Origin: Actinomycetota bacterium
GTDB taxonomy: Bacteria; Actinomycetota; Actinomycetes; S36-B12
NCBI GenBank assembly: GCA_005798555.1
Contig: SYJA01000024.1
Location: 28,735-92,734 of the forward strand
Reading direction: 5' to 3'
Length of the DNA: 64,000 nucleotides
Position numbers and translations under genes: made by a program
Notes under the pieces: generated by a model
Databases searched by the model: none
What the model saw: only the letters and a program-made list of their open reading frames with translations
Told to the model about the DNA's origin: nothing
Part shown: positions 4,123-63,002 of the stretch, piece after piece
How positions within the stretch are numbered: the stretch's first letter is position 1
Layout: the number at the start of each line of letters is the position of its first letter

Positions 4123-5640
4123 TCAACTGGCGTGTTGCACCTTGGTACCCCCATCAGCCACCGGTACCAGTGCCGGATCAACAACGCACGGCTTGCGGTG
4201 CCAAAACGGTGAGTCCGACACGCGCGAGGCCAGCATGAAGATAATCCCCATCAAGAAGATGAAGGCACCGATTAACAGCGGTGGGCCCACTCCGAACCAG
4301 GATTCACCGGTCGTGGAGTTCGTCGGGTCCGCCATACTCATTCCAGACAACACCAATAGAGCCACCAGCATGATTGAGCCAATGACCGGCCCTACGCCAA
4401 TTAAGAAGAAGGCTCGGCGATTATGCAGCACTTGGCGGCGGTAGTACACGGCGCAAGCAAGTCCGGTGAGCGAGTAGTAAAAGGCAATCAGCATGGAAAG
4501 TGCAGTCACGGAGTCAATTAGCGCATTCGTGCTGATGAGATTAACTCCGACGTACCAAACGATTGCAATCGTCGCAACCCACCAGGTCGACACACTCGGA
4601 GTTTGGGCCGTCGCGGAAATCTTGCCGAAATATTTCGGGATGGCTTGATTGCGGGCCATCGAAAGCGCAGTGCGCGAGGCCGGGATGATCGTGGTCTGAG
4701 TGGACGCCAATGCCGATGTTGCGACCGCTGCTAGGACAATCCACTTCCAACCACCTAAGGCATCACCGGCAACAGTGGCAAAAATCATTTCCTGCTGATC
4801 GGAGTGGGCTGCTAGCAAACTCGGGCCGAGGAATGCCAATACGGCGATGGCCGTCCCGACATAAGTGACAAGTAAAATCCCCGTTGACGCCAACCCGGCA
4901 AGGCCGGGAATTCGCGACGAATCTTTCGTCTCCTCACTTAGGTTGAAAGCTGACTCCCAACCCCAATAAGCAAAAACCCCTAGTAGCAGGGCACCGGTGA
5001 GCGCACCGGAGCCTTGCCCGAAGGGATTGAGCCAGGACCACTCCGGCAACGGAGCACCCGGTGTACCCGAACCGGTGAACGCCCGGATCAGCGCGACGGC
5101 GACCAGAATTAGCAGTCCGCCGATCTGCGCAAGCACCAAGACATTTTGCAGTTTTGAGGTCGCTTCCGTTCCAACTACGCAAATCCAGGTCATGAAGATT
5201 ATGACGACCACCGCGATACCCATTACCAGATATCGATTTTGGGCCATCTCATCCTGACCGAACATCAATAAGGTGAAACGAACTGCGACATCAGCGAGTG
5301 AGCCGACAACTAGCACTCCGGTCACCGCGATGGCCCAGCCACCCAACCACCCCATCCACGGACCCATGGCCCGCGCAACCCACGAGAATGTAGTTCCGCA
5401 GTCCTGATCAACTCTGTTCAAGTAGTTAAATGCTGAGGCAATCAGCAGCATTGGCACGAAGGATGCGATTAGCACGCCGGGTGCATTGACACCGACCAAC
5501 ACGACAATCGGTCCAAGTACTGCAGCAAGTGAATAGGCCGGAGAAGTGGAATTCAAGCCAATCGCCAGTGCATCCACGAAGGTCAGCGAATTGGCCTTGA
5601 GCCTGGGCTGAACCGGGGTAGTTGCAGTTTCGGATGTCAC
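4123..5640 (-). CDS. APC-superfamily amino acid/polyamine permease
   Basis: 505 aa with about 12 TM segments. Composition and length are typical of APC permeases (…NSTSPAYSLAAVLGP…FAYWGWESA…). Confidence 0.8.
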   Translation of the reverse strand: MTSETATTPVQPRLKANSLTFVDALAIGLNSTSPAYSLAAVLGPIVVLVGVNAPGVLIASFVPMLLIASAFNYLNRVDQDCGTTFSWVARAMGPWMGWLGGWAIAVTGVLVVGSLADVAVRFTLLMFGQDEMAQNRYLVMGIAVVVIIFMTWICVVGTEATSKLQNVLVLAQIGGLLILVAVALIRAFTGSGTPGAPLPEWSWLNPFGQGSGALTGALLLGVFAYWGWESAFNLSEETKDSSRIPGLAGLASTGILLVTYVGTAIAVLAFLGPSLLAAHSDQQEMIFATVAGDALGGWKWIVLAAVATSALASTQTTIIPASRTALSMARNQAIPKYFGKISATAQTPSVSTWWVATIAIVWYVGVNLISTNALIDSVTALSMLIAFYYSLTGLACAVYYRRQVLHNRRAFFLIGVGPVIGSIMLVALLVLSGMSMADPTNSTTGESWFGVGPPLLIGAFIFLMGIIFMLASRVSDSPFWHRKPCVVDPALVPVADGGTKVQHAS

Positions 5641-7761: not shown

Positions 7762-7896
7762 CTACCTCGCTGAATTGGTCAGATGGCAATCACAGCGTGC
7801 ACTTGCCGGGAAACTCCCCAGCACCTGCTCGACATGCTCGCCGCAGCCGGTGTAAGTGATCTTCTTGCAGGTTGAACAGGTTGCGGGGCTACACAC
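7762..7896 (-). CDS. Cys-rich micro-protein (44 aa), co-oriented downstream of the CsoR-family gene
   Basis: Not in the ORF track because it is under 60 aa. GTG start at 7896 is preceded by GGAG 7 nt upstream. Translation: VCSPATCSTCKKITYTGCGEHVEQVLGSFPASARCDCHLTNSAR*. It has 6 Cys plus 2 His and lies 51 nt after the regulator stop. Confidence 0.4.
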   Translation of the reverse strand: MCSPATCSTCKKITYTGCGEHVEQVLGSFPASARCDCHLTNSAR

Positions 7897-7947
7897 GGAC
7901 GGGCTCCAGTTCAATAGTTGGGGTCGCTGACATTAATATGACACACA

Positions 7948-8247
7948 TCAGGCCAAGATCAGGAAAAGGCGCTGAAGCTGAGCCGAAACCGCCTCGGCAT
8001 CTGATCGATCCTCTTGAATGCATTCCTTAAGGCTCGAGGAAATCAGCGTAAAAGCAGCGGTATCGATGGCCTTGCCAACCGCCGCGATCTGCGTGACGAC
8101 CTCATCGCAACTGCGGCCGGTCTCAAGCATCTTGATGATGCCGCCAAGTTGGCCCTGGGCCCGCGACAGGCGCTTAATGATCTCCGCAAGGCGCTCTTGA
8201 TCCGATAACACGTGGGCTATTGGCGCTGCTGCCTTCTTGGTAGCCAC
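7948..8247 (-). CDS. CsoR/RcnR/FrmR-family (DUF156) metal- or thiol-sensing transcriptional repressor
   Basis: 99 aa and all-helical. Family core RLSRAQGQLGGIIKMLETGRSCDEV…SSSLKEC, with the two Cys spaced 29 residues apart as in CsoR C36/C65. The His61-equivalent position is Ser. Confidence 0.85.
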   Translation of the reverse strand: MATKKAAAPIAHVLSDQERLAEIIKRLSRAQGQLGGIIKMLETGRSCDEVVTQIAAVGKAIDTAAFTLISSSLKECIQEDRSDAEAVSAQLQRLFLILA

Positions 8248-8286
8248 TCGACCTCCCGGATCCGCGGATTAGCACTGTCTCCTCAA

Positions 8287-8304
8287 GATACCCCATGGGG
8301 TATC
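8287..8304. promoter_or_regulatory. Perfect 18-bp palindrome GATACCCCATGGGGTATC, candidate CsoR-type operator
   Basis: Located 40 bp upstream of the regulator start. G/C-tract inverted repeat of the ATACCCC…GGGGTAT type known for CsoR-family operators. Confidence 0.6.
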
Positions 8305-8315
8305 ACGGGAGCAAT

Positions 8316-9281
8316 TCAACCGGCCGGTTGGTGGGCTAAATACGCCGACTCCAACTCGGCCCGCAGGAAATCACCGAAAACTAGTGGTGGGAAGGCGGGG
8401 GCCTGCCCCGGGGGCACACAACTTGCCAATGGCGCGATCACCGTGCGGACATGTGGGTCAAAGAAAAATGGCACCGAGTACCGCTCCCGGCCGCTGCGGT
8501 TTGTTACGCGGTGCGGAGTCGAGAGCAAGCGCCCATTACTCCACCGGTTGAGCATGTCGCCAACGTTTAGCACAAAGGCACCCGGCATCGGCGTGACATC
8601 AGCCCACCGACCATCGGTGGTCTTGACACTTAACCCGCCCACATCGTCCTGGGCTAGCAAGGTGATCGCCCCGAAATCACGATGCGGCGCTGACCCGTAT
8701 TCGTCGGCCGGGGCGGCCGGCTCCTGGGGCGGATAATGCAGCAACCTGAGCCAGGTGGTTGGTGAGTCAAAGGATTTTGCAAGTTGGCCGTCATCGCCAA
8801 GGCCGGTTGCGATAACCCCGATTAGCGAACGGGCAAACGTGCTCATTGCATCGTGATACTCAAGCATGGCCTGTTGGAACCCGGGCAGGTCGACCGGCCA
8901 CTGGTTGGGTCCGGACAAATACTCCCCCGCGATTACGTCAACATGTGCTGGCCCAAGGTCTCGCATCATCATGAATGATTCACTCTGATTTGGCTTAGTG
9001 ACTTTCTCGAGCGATGAGTTCACGTCAGTCGACGCCTTGAAAGGTATGTATCCGCGGTGCGATGTGTCGAGCTTGATCGCGAGTTTGCGGGCTAAGGGCA
9101 GGTCATGAAATTTGCGGGATTGCTCGAATACGGCCGCCATCAGGTCTGGGGAAACTGGGTGATTGATCACATAGCCGAAGCCGACCTCGCCGTATGCACC
9201 GAGCAGGTCTTGACTGATTTGGTTATCGGCAGCCACCGAGTCACCGAGGCCGCTTAGGTCAATTACCGGGATATCGGGCAT
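8316..9281 (-). CDS. 2-oxoglutarate/Fe(II)-dependent oxygenase (isopenicillin N synthase-like family)
   Basis: HxD…H triad context (SAPHRDFGAITLL … LLSTPHRV) and an RxS motif (RERYSVPFF). 321 aa. Confidence 0.8.
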   Translation of the reverse strand: MPDIPVIDLSGLGDSVAADNQISQDLLGAYGEVGFGYVINHPVSPDLMAAVFEQSRKFHDLPLARKLAIKLDTSHRGYIPFKASTDVNSSLEKVTKPNQSESFMMMRDLGPAHVDVIAGEYLSGPNQWPVDLPGFQQAMLEYHDAMSTFARSLIGVIATGLGDDGQLAKSFDSPTTWLRLLHYPPQEPAAPADEYGSAPHRDFGAITLLAQDDVGGLSVKTTDGRWADVTPMPGAFVLNVGDMLNRWSNGRLLSTPHRVTNRSGRERYSVPFFFDPHVRTVIAPLASCVPPGQAPAFPPLVFGDFLRAELESAYLAHQPAG

Positions 9282-9283
9282 GG

Positions 9284-10426
9284 TCAGGCGCGAAGGCTCG
9301 GCGTGGAGCTGACGGCTGTTAGTTCGCCGGGCAGTGAGACTTCAAGGAGTTGCGCATCCGGGGATACCCCCGTGAGCGCATGCTCTTGATCGGCCGGCAT
9401 CACGAATGAATCCCCAGCTTCCAAGGGTTGATCGGCATGACCGGGCATTACTAATGTCACCGAGCCAGCCATCACGAAAGTGAAGAAGAATTCATTTTCC
9501 ACCAGCGACATCAAGGTGGCGACCCCGGTTGTCGGCCGGATTACCCGCGCGCCAGCGAGCCCGAAGGTGGCGTTCGCGATACCCAGGTCCCGATATTCGA
9601 ACCCCTCATGACGCCACGGCTGCCACGTCGCAAATTCGGCTTGATGCCGCACGAATAATTGGCCATCGAAGATCCGCTCCGGTAATACCTGCGTGGTGGG
9701 CAAGGTGATCGTGTGCTCCGCCAAGGTGTCGTGCTCTGCTGGGCAGCCGATTTCAATGACTTCAAGCCCCGGTGAGCTCTCTAGAACACGGTGACGGATC
9801 TGCGGTGGCTGCAGCACGCAATCCCCGGCGTGCAGAACAAATGGCTCACCTTGATCTTCGTATACGACTTTCACCCAACCGCGATAGCAGAAGATGAGTT
9901 GGAAGCGCACCTGGTGGAAGTGAACGTAATCAGGAACGGGGCCACCATCTGGAATTCTGATGTGCGATGCGATGAACCGACCACCTTGGCGCCCCGGCTC
10001 AAGATCGCGGTATTGCATGCCAGCACGCCCGGTACCCCAGCGGGCATTGCCAAAGACTCTGCTGACAACAAGTGACTGAGCAACCGGCGGCAGCACCATG
10101 CCCGGGGCGGCTTCGACAATGTCGATCAGCGTGCCATTGGGGGCGATAAGTGTCGGGCCAGCATCTAGGACACCCGAGGGCAGCAGGGCCAGATCACGGT
10201 AAGTCAATCGAATGCGACTCGGAGCACATTCACCAGTTATTTCCTGCAACCGCAAGCGCAGCCCGTAGCCGAAAATCACCGCCATTGACGGGCTATCGGC
10301 CGGTGAGATCACCTCAAGTCGAAAACCAAGACTCTTGACGAAAAAAGCCAGGGTCTCATCAAGCCCATTGCACTCAATGACTACTACCCCGGTGGTGGAA
10401 TTCTGAGTATCCGGTGCCATGGTCAA
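9284..10426 (-). CDS. VOC (glyoxalase-like) N-domain plus bicupin protein
   Basis: 380 aa. N-terminal VVVIECNGLDETLAFFVKSLGFRLE is VOC-like. Two cupin barrels follow (…HFHQVRFQLIFCYRGWVKVVYED… and …FFFTFVMAGSVTLVMPG…). Only 2 nt separate it from the 2OG oxygenase. Confidence 0.55.
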   Translation of the reverse strand: MTMAPDTQNSTTGVVVIECNGLDETLAFFVKSLGFRLEVISPADSPSMAVIFGYGLRLRLQEITGECAPSRIRLTYRDLALLPSGVLDAGPTLIAPNGTLIDIVEAAPGMVLPPVAQSLVVSRVFGNARWGTGRAGMQYRDLEPGRQGGRFIASHIRIPDGGPVPDYVHFHQVRFQLIFCYRGWVKVVYEDQGEPFVLHAGDCVLQPPQIRHRVLESSPGLEVIEIGCPAEHDTLAEHTITLPTTQVLPERIFDGQLFVRHQAEFATWQPWRHEGFEYRDLGIANATFGLAGARVIRPTTGVATLMSLVENEFFFTFVMAGSVTLVMPGHADQPLEAGDSFVMPADQEHALTGVSPDAQLLEVSLPGELTAVSSTPSLRA

Positions 10427-61409: not shown

Positions 61410-63002
61410 TTACTTGTTTCGCTCGAGTGCACGGGTCAGCGCTCTGCCGGACTCATCTGCTAGTGCTGCACTTCGAAGTTCCTTGATTATCGAAGCCGGG
61501 TCACTAGCCTTAATTGCTATTGGCAGGTAGTCCATTATTGCTTCGAAATTGCGCATACCATTGGCATGGGTATCTCCGTACCCCTTGATCAGTTGTTGGC
61601 ACAAACACACCTGGTAGGCCAATTCGGGGTTCGTCACGGCCAGGTCAGCTACCCGTCCCAGCCAGTGGTCGATGCGACTTTGCTCGATCCCAAAGCGAAG
61701 TGATCGGCGGCGCAGTGGCCTAAGCCTTGCCAGCACATACAAGACGGTGAATCCCCAGACCGAGGACGTTTGAATCTTTATCCCTTTATGGGTGATCTTG
61801 AAAACCAGCCACTGGAAGAGTTTCGAGCCCAGGAGCAATCGCCCAAGTTTCGTCGGCAGGGTGTCGGTTATCTCTTCAATCTGCGGATGAAGGAACTCAC
61901 GGACTTGAACCATTTCAACTTCCGTGGCCCGAGATTCCGCTCGAACCCTGTCAAAACGTACTTTGCGAGTCTTATGGAAGGCCACGCGGATGGTGTCCTC
62001 GTACGTCATCCAAAGCGCCGTGTAACGGGCGGCCTCAACGGTCAACTTGAAGTCTTGCGTTGAATCGACAATCGCGATTCGTGCCACCCGGTCGAGCAAC
62101 TGCTCGGCGTACTCCCCGTCTTGATATTCCGCGGTTCGCTTAATACCCTCAACCAGCACGTAGCGCGCTTGCTCCGGAAACGCAGATCTGATTCGCAGCG
62201 CACAATCGGTCAGTTTCGGACCAACAAGTGAACTCGGATCCTTGATGGCGCGCTCTACTTTCACAGGGTCCGGGCCGGGGTCTTCGGTTTCCGGAGGCCG
62301 TGCCCCAATGGTTACTTCAACCACCGGTCGCTCCGCCGCCAACGCAGCCTTGAACCCGGCGTCAAAGGCGGCCAAGCTGGCCTCAATGCCCTTCCCCCCG
62401 GCTCGAATGACCTCCTCGCATTGTTCACGAGAAAACGGCATTACCCGAGCTGCCGCAATGGCTCCAAACAAGCAGGCACTGATCACACTGCCGTTGTCCA
62501 GGGCCAATTTATTGAAGTCAGCCCGGATGAACCGCTTAGCAGACAGCTTCGCTGCGTCGATGAGCCCCTGTGACTCAATGCGGCCGTCACCCATAGCGGT
62601 GCGCTCCGGCATTGAATAAACCCGGTTGGTCGAAGCAATCAACGTCGTGCGATCAGGTGTGCAAAAACCTCTTTGGATCGCTCTGCCCGACTCCATTAGC
62701 TCAGAGGCCACGGCGATATCGACTTCACCAGGTGTCGGCATCGTGCTGAGAATTGGCTCTGGCTGGTTTGGATCATCGCTAATCTTGCGCAGTATTTCTA
62801 CGTAATAAACCGTTGTGCCCGTGCGTTGTGCGACCCCGGCCACCGAAGTGTTCTGGGCGAAATAACCATTGCGCTCGGCCACCGCGACAACCCAGTCGGC
62901 GAGTACTCCACCACCCTCCCCGCCCATTGCCAAGATCGCCATCGTGATTGGCCGGGTAACCCCTGGCACTGGCGTACTGGCCTTGAGGTCAACACTTGTC
63001 AT
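61410..63002 (-). CDS. iorB: Indolepyruvate:ferredoxin oxidoreductase beta-subunit family protein (long form)
   Basis: N-terminal POR-gamma-like domain (ILAMGGEGGGVLADW…) plus a long C-terminal helical extension. 4-nt overlap with the upstream alpha-subunit gene. Confidence 0.75.
   Translation of the reverse strand: MTSVDLKASTPVPGVTRPITMAILAMGGEGGGVLADWVVAVAERNGYFAQNTSVAGVAQRTGTTVYYVEILRKISDDPNQPEPILSTMPTPGEVDIAVASELMESGRAIQRGFCTPDRTTLIASTNRVYSMPERTAMGDGRIESQGLIDAAKLSAKRFIRADFNKLALDNGSVISACLFGAIAAARVMPFSREQCEEVIRAGGKGIEASLAAFDAGFKAALAAERPVVEVTIGARPPETEDPGPDPVKVERAIKDPSSLVGPKLTDCALRIRSAFPEQARYVLVEGIKRTAEYQDGEYAEQLLDRVARIAIVDSTQDFKLTVEAARYTALWMTYEDTIRVAFHKTRKVRFDRVRAESRATEVEMVQVREFLHPQIEEITDTLPTKLGRLLLGSKLFQWLVFKITHKGIKIQTSSVWGFTVLYVLARLRPLRRRSLRFGIEQSRIDHWLGRVADLAVTNPELAYQVCLCQQLIKGYGDTHANGMRNFEAIMDYLPIAIKASDPASIIKELRSAALADESGRALTRALERNK

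Follow-up and report, generated by a model that had tools for sequence, protein, structure and literature searches.

The inducers of CsoR-family repressors are diverse (PMC8643695). In actinomycetes, SSN cluster 3 of this family holds x-C-x-C candidate persulfide sensors (PMC8643695), with ScCsoR (SCO0620) from Streptomyces coelicolor as the characterised member (PMC7533328, PMC8643695). ScCsoR, whose cysteine pair is Cys37/Cys66, binds ATACCn6GGTAT and is released by polysulfide; its circuit comprises a PDO-rhodanese, TauE and a rhodanese, and the paper on it reports no small Cys-rich ORF (PMC7533328). In Staphylococcus aureus, Enterococcus faecalis and Streptococcus, CstR (SSN clusters 4 and 10) is an x-C-x-C dithiol sensor using the same operator type. 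The Firmicute cst clusters contain TusA/DsrE-type carriers, the cst operons of E. faecalis and S. mitis also carry a CoADR-rhodanese gene (coaP), and the 'orphan' CstR SPD_0073 of S. pneumoniae D39 has lost its cargo by a precise deletion as compared to S. mitis (PMC8643695).

Here we describe a locus that resembles these systems in its repressor and operator. It lies in a 64-kb window, i.e. the whole stretch of DNA that was analysed (Table 1). With a probability of about 0.7, it represents a cst-like (reactive-sulfur-species) operon in reduced form, belonging to a freshwater actinobacterium and consisting of a CstR-type repressor, a palindromic operator and a Cys-rich microprotein. Unlike the ScCsoR circuit, the operon in the window has lost, or lacks, all enzymes, and in place of the carriers of the Firmicute clusters it encodes the microprotein.

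Table 1. Features of the locus and their positions in the window
Feature	Position	Strand	Basis
SDR-family oxidoreductase, 256 aa	6954..7724	-	adh_short_C2 E=9e-62; 37 nt downstream of micro-ORF
Micro-ORF, 44 aa, GTG start, TAG stop	7762..7896	-	homologues, invariant Cys/His columns, pN/pS, AF2
51-nt spacer, matches last ~19 codons of the L006 CoADR-rhodanese gene; holds micro-ORF RBS	7897..7947	-	blastn breakpoints, alignment, tblastn
CstR-like (x-C-S-C) CsoR-family repressor, 99 aa	7948..8247	-	GTG start at 8247; RBS GGGAGG 8257-8252; PF02583
Predicted promoter: -35-like TTGCTC 8314-8309, 18-nt spacer, -10-like TATCTT 8290-8285	8285..8314	-	inferred from sequence and cross-locus geometry
Operator, perfect 18-bp palindrome GATACCCCATGGGGTATC; core ATACC-n6-GGTAT at 8288-8303	8287..8304		sequence scan and cross-locus conservation

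The repressor and its operator

The regulator matches the PF02583 profile (DUF156, Trns_repr_metal) with E=9.7e-21 and 74.4 bits against a cut-off of 22.8, and its 99 residues lie in the range of ~90-110 aa of the CsoR/RcnR superfamily. Ten CsoR-family chains in the PDB match it; the best ones, 7mq1 and 7mq3, both figure in the S. pneumoniae CstR paper (PMC8643695). The identity to Firmicute CstR amounts to ~40% across 73 residues. Cys47 and Cys76 are its sensing residues, and four positions ahead of the latter stands Ser72, which aligns with Asn in chain 7mq1 and with His61 of M. tuberculosis CsoR. The replacement of this copper ligand by serine had been pointed out in the earlier note and is borne out, the C-S-C site being present in 119 of the 120 closest homologues listed. 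The cysteine pair also shows the CsoR spacing claimed there, but the count of C-x29-C was wrong, as 28 residues lie between the two (C-x28-C, spacing 29).

With two cysteines at X and Z and no metal ligand at W or Y, the regulator follows the pattern of the CstR-type SSN clusters 3, 4 and 10. Ser72 at the Y position departs from the x-C-H-C ligand set of Cu(I)-sensing CsoR, and copA or copZ genes, whose adjacency marks copper sensors (GNN criterion of PMC8643695), are not found next to the regulator; the orthologous loci carry rhodanese and CoADR-rhodanese genes. The Ni/Co-sensor patterns of RcnR and InrS (H-C-H-H / H-C-H-C) are likewise interrupted at Y, and the alignment with InrS pairs His12 of the regulator with InrS residue 19, which is not a ligand position. 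The N-terminus, M-A-T-K, has neither His3 nor Pro2; this start and the serine at Y deviate from the FrmR formaldehyde-sensor pattern (P-C-H-x), and the regulator scores 29.8 with the NCBIfam FrmR profile, whose cut-off is 133.

Compared by published features, the regulator shares with ScCsoR the PF02583 family, a Cys spacing of 29 (Cys37/Cys66 vs Cys47/Cys76), the lack of a His ligand, autoregulation (predicted in the window), a 16-bp ATACC-n6-GGTAT site at the promoter and the control of rhodanese-type genes, the last in its case by orthologues. An orthologue with 69% identity heads an operon of rhodanese, CoADR-rhodanese and thioredoxin genes, and in the loci L001-L005, whose regulators show this same amino acid identity, the neighbours are a rhodanese, a CoADR-rhodanese and an SQR-like gene. 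The window regulator and those of the Nanopelagicaceae have Ser as the Y residue, the remaining co-located regulators Gly. The fingerprint had earlier been judged closer to that of CstR-like members than to that of copper sensors, and both the x-C-S-C site and the operons headed by the orthologues agree with this. Taken together, the sequence comparisons support a placement of the regulator in the His-less x-C-x-C (CstR-like) branch and not among the copper sensors. It is a further member of an already known sensor class. The W-X-Y-Z motif alone is insufficient to read inducer specificity in the CsoR family (PMC8643695); we infer persulfide or polysulfide as the inducer.

The perfect palindrome described in the earlier note is present and is the sole match in 64 kb even if up to 3 mismatches are allowed (0.03 expected). 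Its distance from the regulator, given there as 40 bp, corresponds to 39 nt between palindrome and GTG codon. The core reads ATACCCCATGGGGTAT, has the form of the experimentally defined ScCsoR site, lies at the regulator's own predicted promoter, cst/ScCsoR-type operators being located at own or target promoters, and resembles the S. mitis cst operator ATATACCCTTATGGGGTATAT (PMC8643695). It is kept upstream of the orthologous regulators in L001-L009. A strict sigma-70 promoter scan gave no match; the promoter was placed by cross-locus alignment instead. In 48 aligned promoters, the operator lies between TTGnnn and an overlapping TATnnT formed by the 3' end of the operator. In the window, the 18-nt promoter spacer holds the left part of the operator, and the -10-like element shares its last 4 nt. 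This conservation supports the palindrome as a bona fide CsoR/CstR-type operator overlapping the predicted promoter. As it fills the spacer between -35 and -10 and overlaps the -10 element of the repressor's own promoter, bound repressor would block transcription.

In the circuit proposed here, the reduced dithiol form of the repressor would bind the palindrome and shut off the regulator gene, the micro-ORF and probably the SDR gene. Upon build-up of persulfide or polysulfide, Cys47 and/or Cys76 would become persulfidated or cross-linked, the repressor would leave the DNA and the operon would be switched on. The 44-aa Cys-rich protein would then be the promoter-distal cargo that was retained in the window lineage.

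The Cys-rich micro-ORF and its family

The micro-ORF product, VCSPATCSTCKKITYTGCGEHVEQVLGSFPASARCDCHLTNSAR, comprises 44 aa, among them 6 Cys and 2 His, the stop codon being located at 7762-7764. A 44-codon ORF beginning 51 nt past the regulator stop with GGAG-N7-GTG had been noticed before, and we find it at exactly this place (GGAG 7907-7904, GTG 7896). The mechanical ORF list contains a 50-aa TTG version; since the homologues start exactly at M-C-S-P, the GTG start is supported over TTG.

Phmmer with the microprotein retrieved 332 representative clusters, and a profile search 2534. Relatives of 38-56 aa were found in 513 species genomes and 68 actinobacterial plasmids and also in some fungi. 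As to the recurrence next to CsoR-like genes, which the earlier note proposed to check, a CsoR-family gene lies within 6 kb of the micro-ORF at 20 of 80 loci. A word-indexed protein search with the 50-aa ORF had yielded no match; this is an artefact of sensitivity, given the hundreds to thousands of relatives retrieved by phmmer and by the profile. The window peptide itself is absent from a collection of 15 billion proteins. Gene callers usually skip the family, and in the public gene calls on contigs with an identical regulator the micro-ORF is uncalled. Among the microprotein matches listed, 120 of 120 are without a Pfam domain, and all are named 'hypothetical'. Pfam gave no match for 24 members even at E<=10, the sole NCBIfam match had E=0.71, and the PDB profile search reached E 0.67 at best. 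Literature searches on the peptide motifs and on Rv1766/CsoR brought up no description of the microprotein.

The ligand pattern of the family, C2-x4-C7-x2-C10-x7-C18-x2-H21-x13-C35-x-C37(H38), is invariant across 350 unique sequences apart from an exchange between C37 and H38. His38 is present in 25 of the 28 members without Cys37, which points to ligand-like covariation. G17, G19, K12, T14, P30 and R34 are conserved as well, length and M-C start are fixed, and the 38-aa core can be written as M-C-x-P-x2-C-x2-C-x-K-x-T-[YW]-x-G-C-G-x-H...R-C-x-C. The pN/pS ratio is 0.11-0.22. The micro-ORF is a genuine, conserved gene.

In the AF2 model (pLDDT 80.5), strands at residues 3-6 and 13-16 are followed by a helix at 19-26. 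A Foldseek search with this model gave nothing significant (best E=3); the nearest folds are all zinc fingers. Domain fusions were considered as Rosetta-stone evidence and discarded, since in most of the longer members the extra length is a mis-called N-terminal extension or a low-complexity tail. One member, P0229, continues into the C-terminal half of a rhodanese; it has the look of a frameshift chimera and was set aside.

Genomic context and the probably trimmed operon

The 80 loci analysed for context were gathered with a narrow alignment (A3) and are biased to members with K-x-T-[YW]-T-G-C-G-x-H or M-C-[SQ]-[PR]-A. At 57 of these independent loci an operator is found whose end lies 0-150 bp ahead of the micro-ORF (mode 34-43 bp), the chance expectation being 0.011 per locus (~1 locus in 80). 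Seven further loci have an operator-like site with 1-2 mismatches, and at nine further ones the operator precedes an upstream operon gene. Within 6 kb, rhodanese genes are found at 42 loci, PDO-like genes at 21 and TauE genes at 15. CoADR-like genes were counted at 22 of the 80, a loose figure since the custom HMM probably also takes generic pyridine-nucleotide-disulfide oxidoreductases, and 23 loci have no sulfur gene inside 6 kb. The immediate neighbours of the micro-ORF include Rhodanese (8+13), Pyr_redox_2 (4+7), Lactamase_B (4) and Thioredoxin (4), and Rhodanese accounts for 15 of 67 operator-adjacent genes; in GC-rich loci these neighbours come from crude ORF-based calls that may include some wrong-strand ORFs. 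All CsoR-family regulators co-located with micro-ORFs have the C-[S/G]-C site.

Plasmid pLDW-10 of A. crystallopoietes provides an annotated case, in which the micro-ORF lies between an MBL-rhodanese and a DsrE gene, with a metal-sensitive regulator, a rhodanese and TauE adjoining. Other carriers that are in culture include Nakamurella multipartita, Sinomonas atrocyanea and Rhodococcus erythropolis PR4 (pREL1). The orthologous operon of the Nanopelagicaceae has the order regulator, rhodanese, CoADR/rhodanese, micro-ORF, thioredoxin, methyltransferase; these bacteria have two operator-headed operons, each with its own micro-ORF paralogue adjoining a Pyr_redox_2-family enzyme (SQR-like or CoADR-rhodanese). 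The placement of the sites supports a co-regulation of the micro-ORF with the CstR-like operator. We propose that across Actinomycetota the micro-ORF family is the gene most consistently found behind ATACC-n6-GGTAT operators, typically first in rhodanese, persulfide-dioxygenase or CoADR-rhodanese operons. Since such sites also serve Cu-sensing CsoR/RicR proteins (PMC7533328), a CstR-like cognate regulator of stand-alone micro-ORFs is only putative.

In the window itself, gene and domain content agree with the earlier statement that the regulator is followed by no gene for CopA/CopZ or a sulfurtransferase. Genes for a sulfurtransferase, SQR or PDO were not detected anywhere in the 64 kb, which makes a physiological sulfur role in the source organism indirect. 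The other neighbours of the regulator are, according to Pfam, an SDR, a 2OG oxygenase, a cupin and a PNPOx-like protein, and no known RNA element was found in the region (Rfam, best E=0.98). The micro-ORF had been taken for the only cargo of the regulator. In that form the reading lacks support, as strain L006 (93-97% nucleotide identity) carries a 562-aa CoA-disulfide-reductase-rhodanese gene between regulator and micro-ORF, and as the SDR gene follows without a terminator; the view of the regulon covers the 64-kb window, and further operators may lie elsewhere in the genome. The hairpin in the spacer between micro-ORF and SDR is no better than shuffled sequences (z=-1.5). Their adjacency is kept in L006, L007 and L009 and rare elsewhere (SDR at 4 of 79 downstream neighbours), and the SDR gene is possibly co-transcribed with the micro-ORF.

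The blastn breakpoints lie at 7950/7921 in the window and at 4307/5976 in L006, and the remnant in the spacer shows 78% identity over the last 14 aa of the CoADR-rhodanese. On this alignment, the spacer is probably the scar of a ~1.65-kb deletion. As the CoADR-rhodanese is present both in L006 and in the Nanopelagicaceae operon, the window looks trimmed and most likely represents a trimmed cst-like operon. The gene is absent in the window, L007, L008 and L009 and present only in L006 among these five relatives; simple parsimony within the clade would therefore favour acquisition by L006, and the shared 51-nt spacer is compatible with either loss or gain. CoADR-rhodanese genes are shared between the cst operons of E. 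faecalis and S. mitis and the loci L006 and L001, and the relation of the window to L006 parallels that of the S. pneumoniae orphan to S. mitis.

Possible functions of the microprotein

The protein would most likely be a metal-thiolate mini-domain with a CxxC knuckle in a beta-hairpin and Cys/His at a helix N-terminus; Cys2 at the N-terminus together with C35 and C37 or H38 would form a second site. Metal binding is a prediction based on the Cys/His pattern together with a 44-residue AF2 model. Treble-clef and zinc-ribbon mini-domains and the 3Cys-1His [2Fe-2S] sites of CDGSH proteins serve as structural comparators. The modelled CxxC knuckle followed by Cys-x2-His at the helix N-terminus is like the former, and C7, C10, C18 and H21 form a 3Cys-1His set like that of CDGSH. 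However, the motif spacing differs from that of CDGSH, the conserved C2/C35/C37 triad is without counterpart, and no structural match is significant. TusA and DsrE carriers are alpha/beta domains of ~75-130 aa with one active Cys. The microprotein resembles them as a small protein encoded beside rhodanese/PDO genes, and its conserved N-terminal C-x-P loosely recalls the CPxP of TusA, but with its 38-aa core and seven putative metal ligands it matches them neither in sequence nor in fold.

Our best guess is a redox-active or thiol-reactive peptide, probably metal-bound; the earlier guesses of a copper chaperone or a metallothionein receive no support from genomic context. Such a peptide would probably act in sulfane-sulfur handling, either accepting or carrying persulfide for enzymes of the rhodanese type or working as a metal/thiol switch that reacts with persulfides. 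More specifically, but tentatively and at clearly less than even odds, we consider the Cys-rich core a new class of metal-thiolate microprotein that reaches plasmids and fungi and would be a core, so far unseen effector of the actinobacterial CstR-like persulfide regulon, serving as dedicated sulfane-sulfur acceptor/carrier or persulfide-triggered metal switch together with rhodanese, PDO and CoADR-type enzymes; the N-terminal Cys, exposed by Met excision, would be part of the active or metal site.

With the regulation unchanged, the protein could alternatively serve as a buffer or switch for Zn (or Fe-S), guarding or re-balancing metal pools under the attack of sulfide or persulfide on metal sites, or it could assist flavoprotein disulfide reductases (SQR-like, CoADR) as a small redox partner. 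We regard this as possible, if rather unlikely. The Cys/His pattern and the exchange of C37 for H38 suggest metal ligands and not a single relay Cys, the non-significant fold neighbours point the same way, both Nanopelagicaceae operons pair their own paralogue with a Pyr_redox_2-family enzyme, and homologues occur in fungi, which have no cst operon. On the other hand, no neighbour domain is more common than rhodanese, which is a module for sulfur transfer, and the metal is itself a prediction from sequence and model.

It is improbable that the repressor senses another thiol-reactive signal (aldehyde, quinone or hypochlorite), with the flanking oxidoreductases as cargo (the SDR downstream, the 2OG-Fe(II) oxygenase and bicupin upstream) and the micro-ORF as a passenger. 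The diversity of CsoR-family inducers, the lack of sulfur enzymes in the window and the SDR following without terminator in conserved adjacency would fit. However, Pro2, which the FrmR mechanism needs, is missing, the SDR association is restricted to a small clade, the oxygenase lies upstream of the operator, and the orthologues with 69% identity keep the C-S-C site and control rhodanese/CoADR-rhodanese genes.

A further comparator is given by the Cu(I)-sensing CsoR/RicR repressors and MymT, a small Cys-rich protein of the RicR regulon. They share the repressor family and operator class with the locus in the window, and MymT, being controlled by an operator of this family, sets a precedent for the architecture. 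A two-Cys repressor that senses Cu(I) or another metal despite the serine, with the microprotein as a Cu(I) metallothionein or chaperone like MymT in M. tuberculosis, would also agree with the 6-7 Cys/His within 38 residues, the Cys37/His38 swap and the few identical Amycolatopsis/Prauserella copies that adjoin Caa3_CtaG-like and NicO genes. Yet the His ligand is missing in nearly all close homologues listed and in every co-located regulator, the context is one of sulfur genes, and the 80 loci yielded a single HMA-like and a single P-type ATPase motif as compared to rhodanese at 42, and the top neighbour families include neither HMA nor E1-E2 ATPase. An hhalign comparison of the family with MymT gave a probability of 8%, i.e. 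no detectable homology. On the grounds of ligand, neighbourhood and homology the copper hypothesis, very improbable in our view, was set aside. It is hardly credible at all that the micro-ORF is a chance ORF, or a Cys-rich leader or attenuator through which downstream sulfur genes would respond to the supply of cysteine or Cys-tRNA: it is often the first, promoter-proximal ORF of sulfur operons and usually skipped by gene callers, but its non-Cys residues, length and M-C start are conserved, pN/pS is 0.1-0.2, the AF2 fold is confident, fungal homologues exist, and the gene is also found behind enzymes or on its own, as it is in the window.

Overall, reactive sulfur sensing of the CstR type is well studied in Firmicutes and barely in Actinomycetota, and ScCsoR is essentially the only characterised one of ~3,000 members of SSN cluster 3. 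Behind the cluster-3-type operator, the most consistent partner appears to be an unannotated Cys-rich microprotein and not an enzyme; it looks like an apparently undescribed core component of actinobacterial reactive-sulfur regulons. It offers an experimental target for persulfide handling in actinobacteria, including abundant freshwater acI-type plankton, Rhodococcus, Arthrobacter and Amycolatopsis. The finding bears on whether a metal-thiolate microprotein connects sulfur stress with metal homeostasis, and on the number of regulon members that escape notice because micro-ORFs are passed over in gene calling. The locus in the window, with repressor and microprotein only, would be a natural 'minimal' version, handy for studying the role of the microprotein without the enzymes.

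A CstR-like regulator and its operator

The 99-aa regulator matched PF02583 (E=9.7e-21) and contains Cys47 and Cys76, with Ser72 occupying the position of the Cu(I)-ligand His. The earlier note had described two Cys at CsoR spacing and a Ser at this position; these residues are present, but the spacing is C-x28-C instead of the proposed C-x29-C. Among the database matches listed, 119 of the 120 closest homologues have C-S-C at the sensing positions X-Y-Z. The best solved-structure match is 7mq1/7mq3, in which Asn replaces the His; the S. pneumoniae CstR paper (PMC8643695) mentions both entries. The regulator was also checked for the residues that define Ni/Co sensors and formaldehyde sensors, and has neither set. 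A 69%-identical orthologue in Nanopelagicaceae (loci L001-L005) is the first gene of a sulfur-type operon with a rhodanese, a CoA-disulfide reductase (CoADR)-rhodanese fusion (TIGR03385, E=2e-135, plus a Rhodanese domain), a thioredoxin and a methyltransferase; a second operon upstream includes a weakly SQR-like flavoprotein. Ser72, the C-S-C homologues and the sulfur-gene operons of the orthologues speak against a copper sensor. The protein belongs with the CstR-like (x-C-x-C) repressors of the family, which lack the His, as the earlier note had favored.

In a similarity network, about 3,175 actinomycete sequences with an x-C-x-C motif make up 'cluster 3' of candidate persulfide sensors, which takes in S. 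coelicolor ScCsoR and Rv1766 (PMC8643695). In EMSA, ScCsoR bound a 16-bp ATACC-n6-GGTAT site, and polysulfide released it from the DNA (PMC7533328). Its Cys37 and Cys66 are spaced by 29, as are Cys47 and Cys76 here, and the core of the window palindrome has exactly the same ATACC-n6-GGTAT form. This perfect palindrome, already recognized in the earlier note, is the sole match to GATACCCCATGGGGTATC in the 64-kb window with up to 3 mismatches permitted (0.03 expected). A half-site-like match, ATACCATTGGCATGGGTAT at window 61555-61573, has a 9-nt spacer in place of the operator's n6 and probably arose by chance. When 48 micro-ORF promoters were aligned, a TTGnnn element was found upstream, and the 3' end of the operator makes a TATnnT -10 element; the operator therefore occupies the spacer and runs into the -10 element. 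The window promoter (TTGCTC, 18 nt, TATCTT) is in the same register. The regulator and its operator are a new member of the actinomycete CstR-like cluster 3, a known kind.

All relevant genes of the locus lie on the minus strand. No terminator-like element was found between the micro-ORF and the following short-chain-type oxidoreductase (SDR) gene, which may be co-transcribed with it; this adjacency is restricted to the window's small clade. Directly upstream of the operon, a bicupin and a 2OG-Fe(II) oxygenase are encoded on the same strand, neither of which matched NCBIfam models. The -35 region of the promoter inferred for the regulator shares sequence with the oxygenase stop codon, so that transcripts might read through into the operon.

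Features of the locus and its surroundings (window coordinates)
Feature	Position	Strand	Remarks
CBM2-GH18-CBM2 protein, 592 aa	10933-12711	+	secreted, chitinase-like; Pro/Thr/Ala-rich linkers
Bicupin (380 aa) and oxygenase together	8316-10426	-	
2OG-Fe(II) oxygenase, 321 aa	8316-9281	-	immediately upstream of the operon
Perfect palindrome GATACCCCATGGGGTATC	8287-8304		in 68-bp oxygenase-regulator gap
Regulator ORF, 99 aa	8247-7948	-	GTG start, preceded by GGGAGG
Regulator-micro-ORF spacer			51 nt
Micro-ORF, 44 codons	7896 (GTG) to stop at 7762-7764	-	GGAG-N7-GTG
SDR gene	7724-6954	-	37 nt after micro-ORF

A conserved family of Cys-rich microproteins

A word-indexed protein search with the micro-ORF returned no relatives. 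Exhaustive phmmer yielded 332 representative clusters, a profile search 2,534 clusters at 90% identity, and a genome scan detected relatives in 513 species-representative genomes. Nearly all family members begin at M-C-[S/R/Q]-P, the same start as the GTG-initiated 44-codon ORF proposed previously, which is therefore preferred over the mechanical 50-aa TTG ORF. Across 350 unique sequences the spacing C2-x4-C7-x2-C10-x7-C18-x2-H21-x13-C35-x-C37 is invariant, and G17, G19, K12, T14, P30 and R34 are likewise conserved; pN/pS in the window's own clade is 0.11-0.22. Conservation and purifying selection show the micro-ORF to be a genuine gene, and the large family to which it belongs has no name. 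His38 is present in 25 of the 28 members without Cys37, an exchange of the kind that would be expected of a metal ligand.

An AlphaFold2 model from a 62-sequence alignment (pLDDT 80.5) places the C7-x2-C10 knuckle on a beta-hairpin and the beginning of a helix at C18/H21. Searches of Pfam, NCBIfam, PDB sequences and PDB folds gave nothing significant; the fold neighbours below significance were small zinc fingers without exception. Named homologues among the matches listed are 'hypothetical' throughout, and the micro-ORF is not called in public contigs with an identical regulator. It also occurs on 68 actinobacterial plasmids (34 from Rhodococcus, 16 from Clavibacter, others from Arthrobacter, Nocardia and mycobacteria), most of which have no feature annotated at the match. 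As no curated family covers the microprotein and its motifs were not printed in the literature searched, the family appears to be undescribed.

Microprotein lengths cluster at ~38 aa and ~53-57 aa, and about a third have a hydrophobic-basic tail. Each Nanopelagicaceae locus encodes two paralogues (L001:2125-2238 and L001:6355-6525): one of 37 aa directly after an operator and before the SQR-like flavoprotein, and one of 56 aa after the CoADR-rhodanese gene, with a C-terminal ...GFFAKLFGGKK tail. 'Hypothetical' homologues in the P0256/P0241 set of database proteins come from many strains of the black yeast Hortaea werneckii (76 aa) and from an assembly of the bdelloid rotifer Didymodactylos carnosus.

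Linkage of the micro-ORF to operator and sulfur genes

In 80 micro-ORF loci gathered by peptide similarity alone, the micro-ORF is linked across Actinomycetota to the operator and to sulfur genes. ATACC-N4-7-GGTAT ends 0-150 bp 5' of the micro-ORF start in 57 loci, most commonly at 34-43 bp, compared with 0.011 such sites per equivalent stretch in the rest of the same loci. Seven further loci have a 1-2-mismatch operator at unchanged spacing, a match reached by <1% of random 160-bp windows, and in another nine, the window's relatives among them, the operator precedes the upstream gene of the same operon. The Nanopelagicaceae have two copies of one operator sequence (ATACCCCTAGGGGTAT), each at the head of an operon with its own micro-ORF paralogue.

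Immediate neighbours match chiefly Rhodanese (8 upstream, 13 downstream), Pyr_redox_2 (4 and 7), Lactamase_B (4) and Thioredoxin (4); Rhodanese accounts for 15 of 67 genes beside any operator in these loci. A custom-HMM census counted 42 loci with rhodanese, 21 with persulfide dioxygenase (PDO)-like genes, 15 with TauE and 20 with a CsoR-family gene. All co-located regulators have C-[S/G]-C and none has the His; copper genes are nearly absent (one HMA-like and one P-type ATPase motif in 80 loci). Plasmid pLDW-10 of Arthrobacter crystallopoietes, which has a RefSeq annotation, carries the micro-ORF without annotating it, flanked by genes for an MBL-fold-rhodanese and a DsrE protein; a metal-sensitive regulator, a rhodanese and TauE adjoin.

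Six Amycolatopsis and Prauserella loci (L062, L065, L068, L069, L070, L072) from six different species or genera share an identical 55-aa microprotein, an identical operator and an identical C-G-C regulator in the same relative positions; neighbours match Caa3_CtaG and NicO, with TauE, rhodanese and PDO a few kb away. This locus looks like a horizontally moving island. Elsewhere (L014, L019, L027 and others), PIG-L (GlcNAc-PI de-N-acetylase-like), GT4 glycosyltransferase and class-III aminotransferase genes, not sulfurtransferases, flank the micro-ORF. The enzymes MshB and MshA of mycothiol biosynthesis belong to the PIG-L and GT4 families, a hint that these loci may be connected with the metabolism of low-molecular-weight thiols. 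The database protein P0229 combines the first 34 microprotein residues with the C-terminal half of a rhodanese (…CKSGYRS…); a frameshift or an assembly error probably produced this chimera of neighbouring genes, which still underlines their adjacency.

A missing enzyme gene and the proposed mechanism

The MAG contig L006, 93-97% identical to the window at the nucleotide level on both sides, has a 562-aa CoADR-rhodanese gene between regulator and micro-ORF, with its stop codon overlapping micro-ORF codons 2-3. The 51-nt window spacer is homologous to the final ~19 codons of this gene, and the order regulator-(rhodanese)-CoADR/rhodanese-microORF recurs in farther lineages (L001-L005, L016, L026); therefore, a ~1.65-kb deletion in the window lineage is the most economical reading. 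As a caveat, the gene is also absent from L007, L008 and L009, and the window has its junction in common with L008 and L009; alternatively, L006 may have regained the gene by recombination after a single older deletion, or may itself have gained it. In S. pneumoniae D39, which compared with S. mitis has lost rhdA-coaP-rhdB by a precise deletion, CstR is an orphan (PMC8643695), a parallel to the window regulator, which lacks the CoADR-rhodanese gene relative to L006. The earlier suggestion that the micro-ORF is the only cargo has to be corrected, given this gene in L006 and the same-strand SDR gene in the window; the observations of the note are confirmed, and its main interpretation stands in a considerably extended form.

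By analogy with characterized relatives, a persulfide or polysulfide would act as inducer and derepression would proceed via modification of Cys47/Cys76. We assign a probability of about 0.8 to the regulatory part of the mechanism. Residue pattern and model suggest that the microprotein might hold metal(s) through C7/C10/C18/H21 and C2/C35/C37-or-H38 and handle sulfane sulfur alongside rhodanese-type enzymes. Such a specific carrier or switch role is tentative, the main alternative being a metal buffer or redox partner.

Overall, the locus is a variant of a known system, and its micro-ORF family looks like a core part of these regulons that annotation systematically misses.
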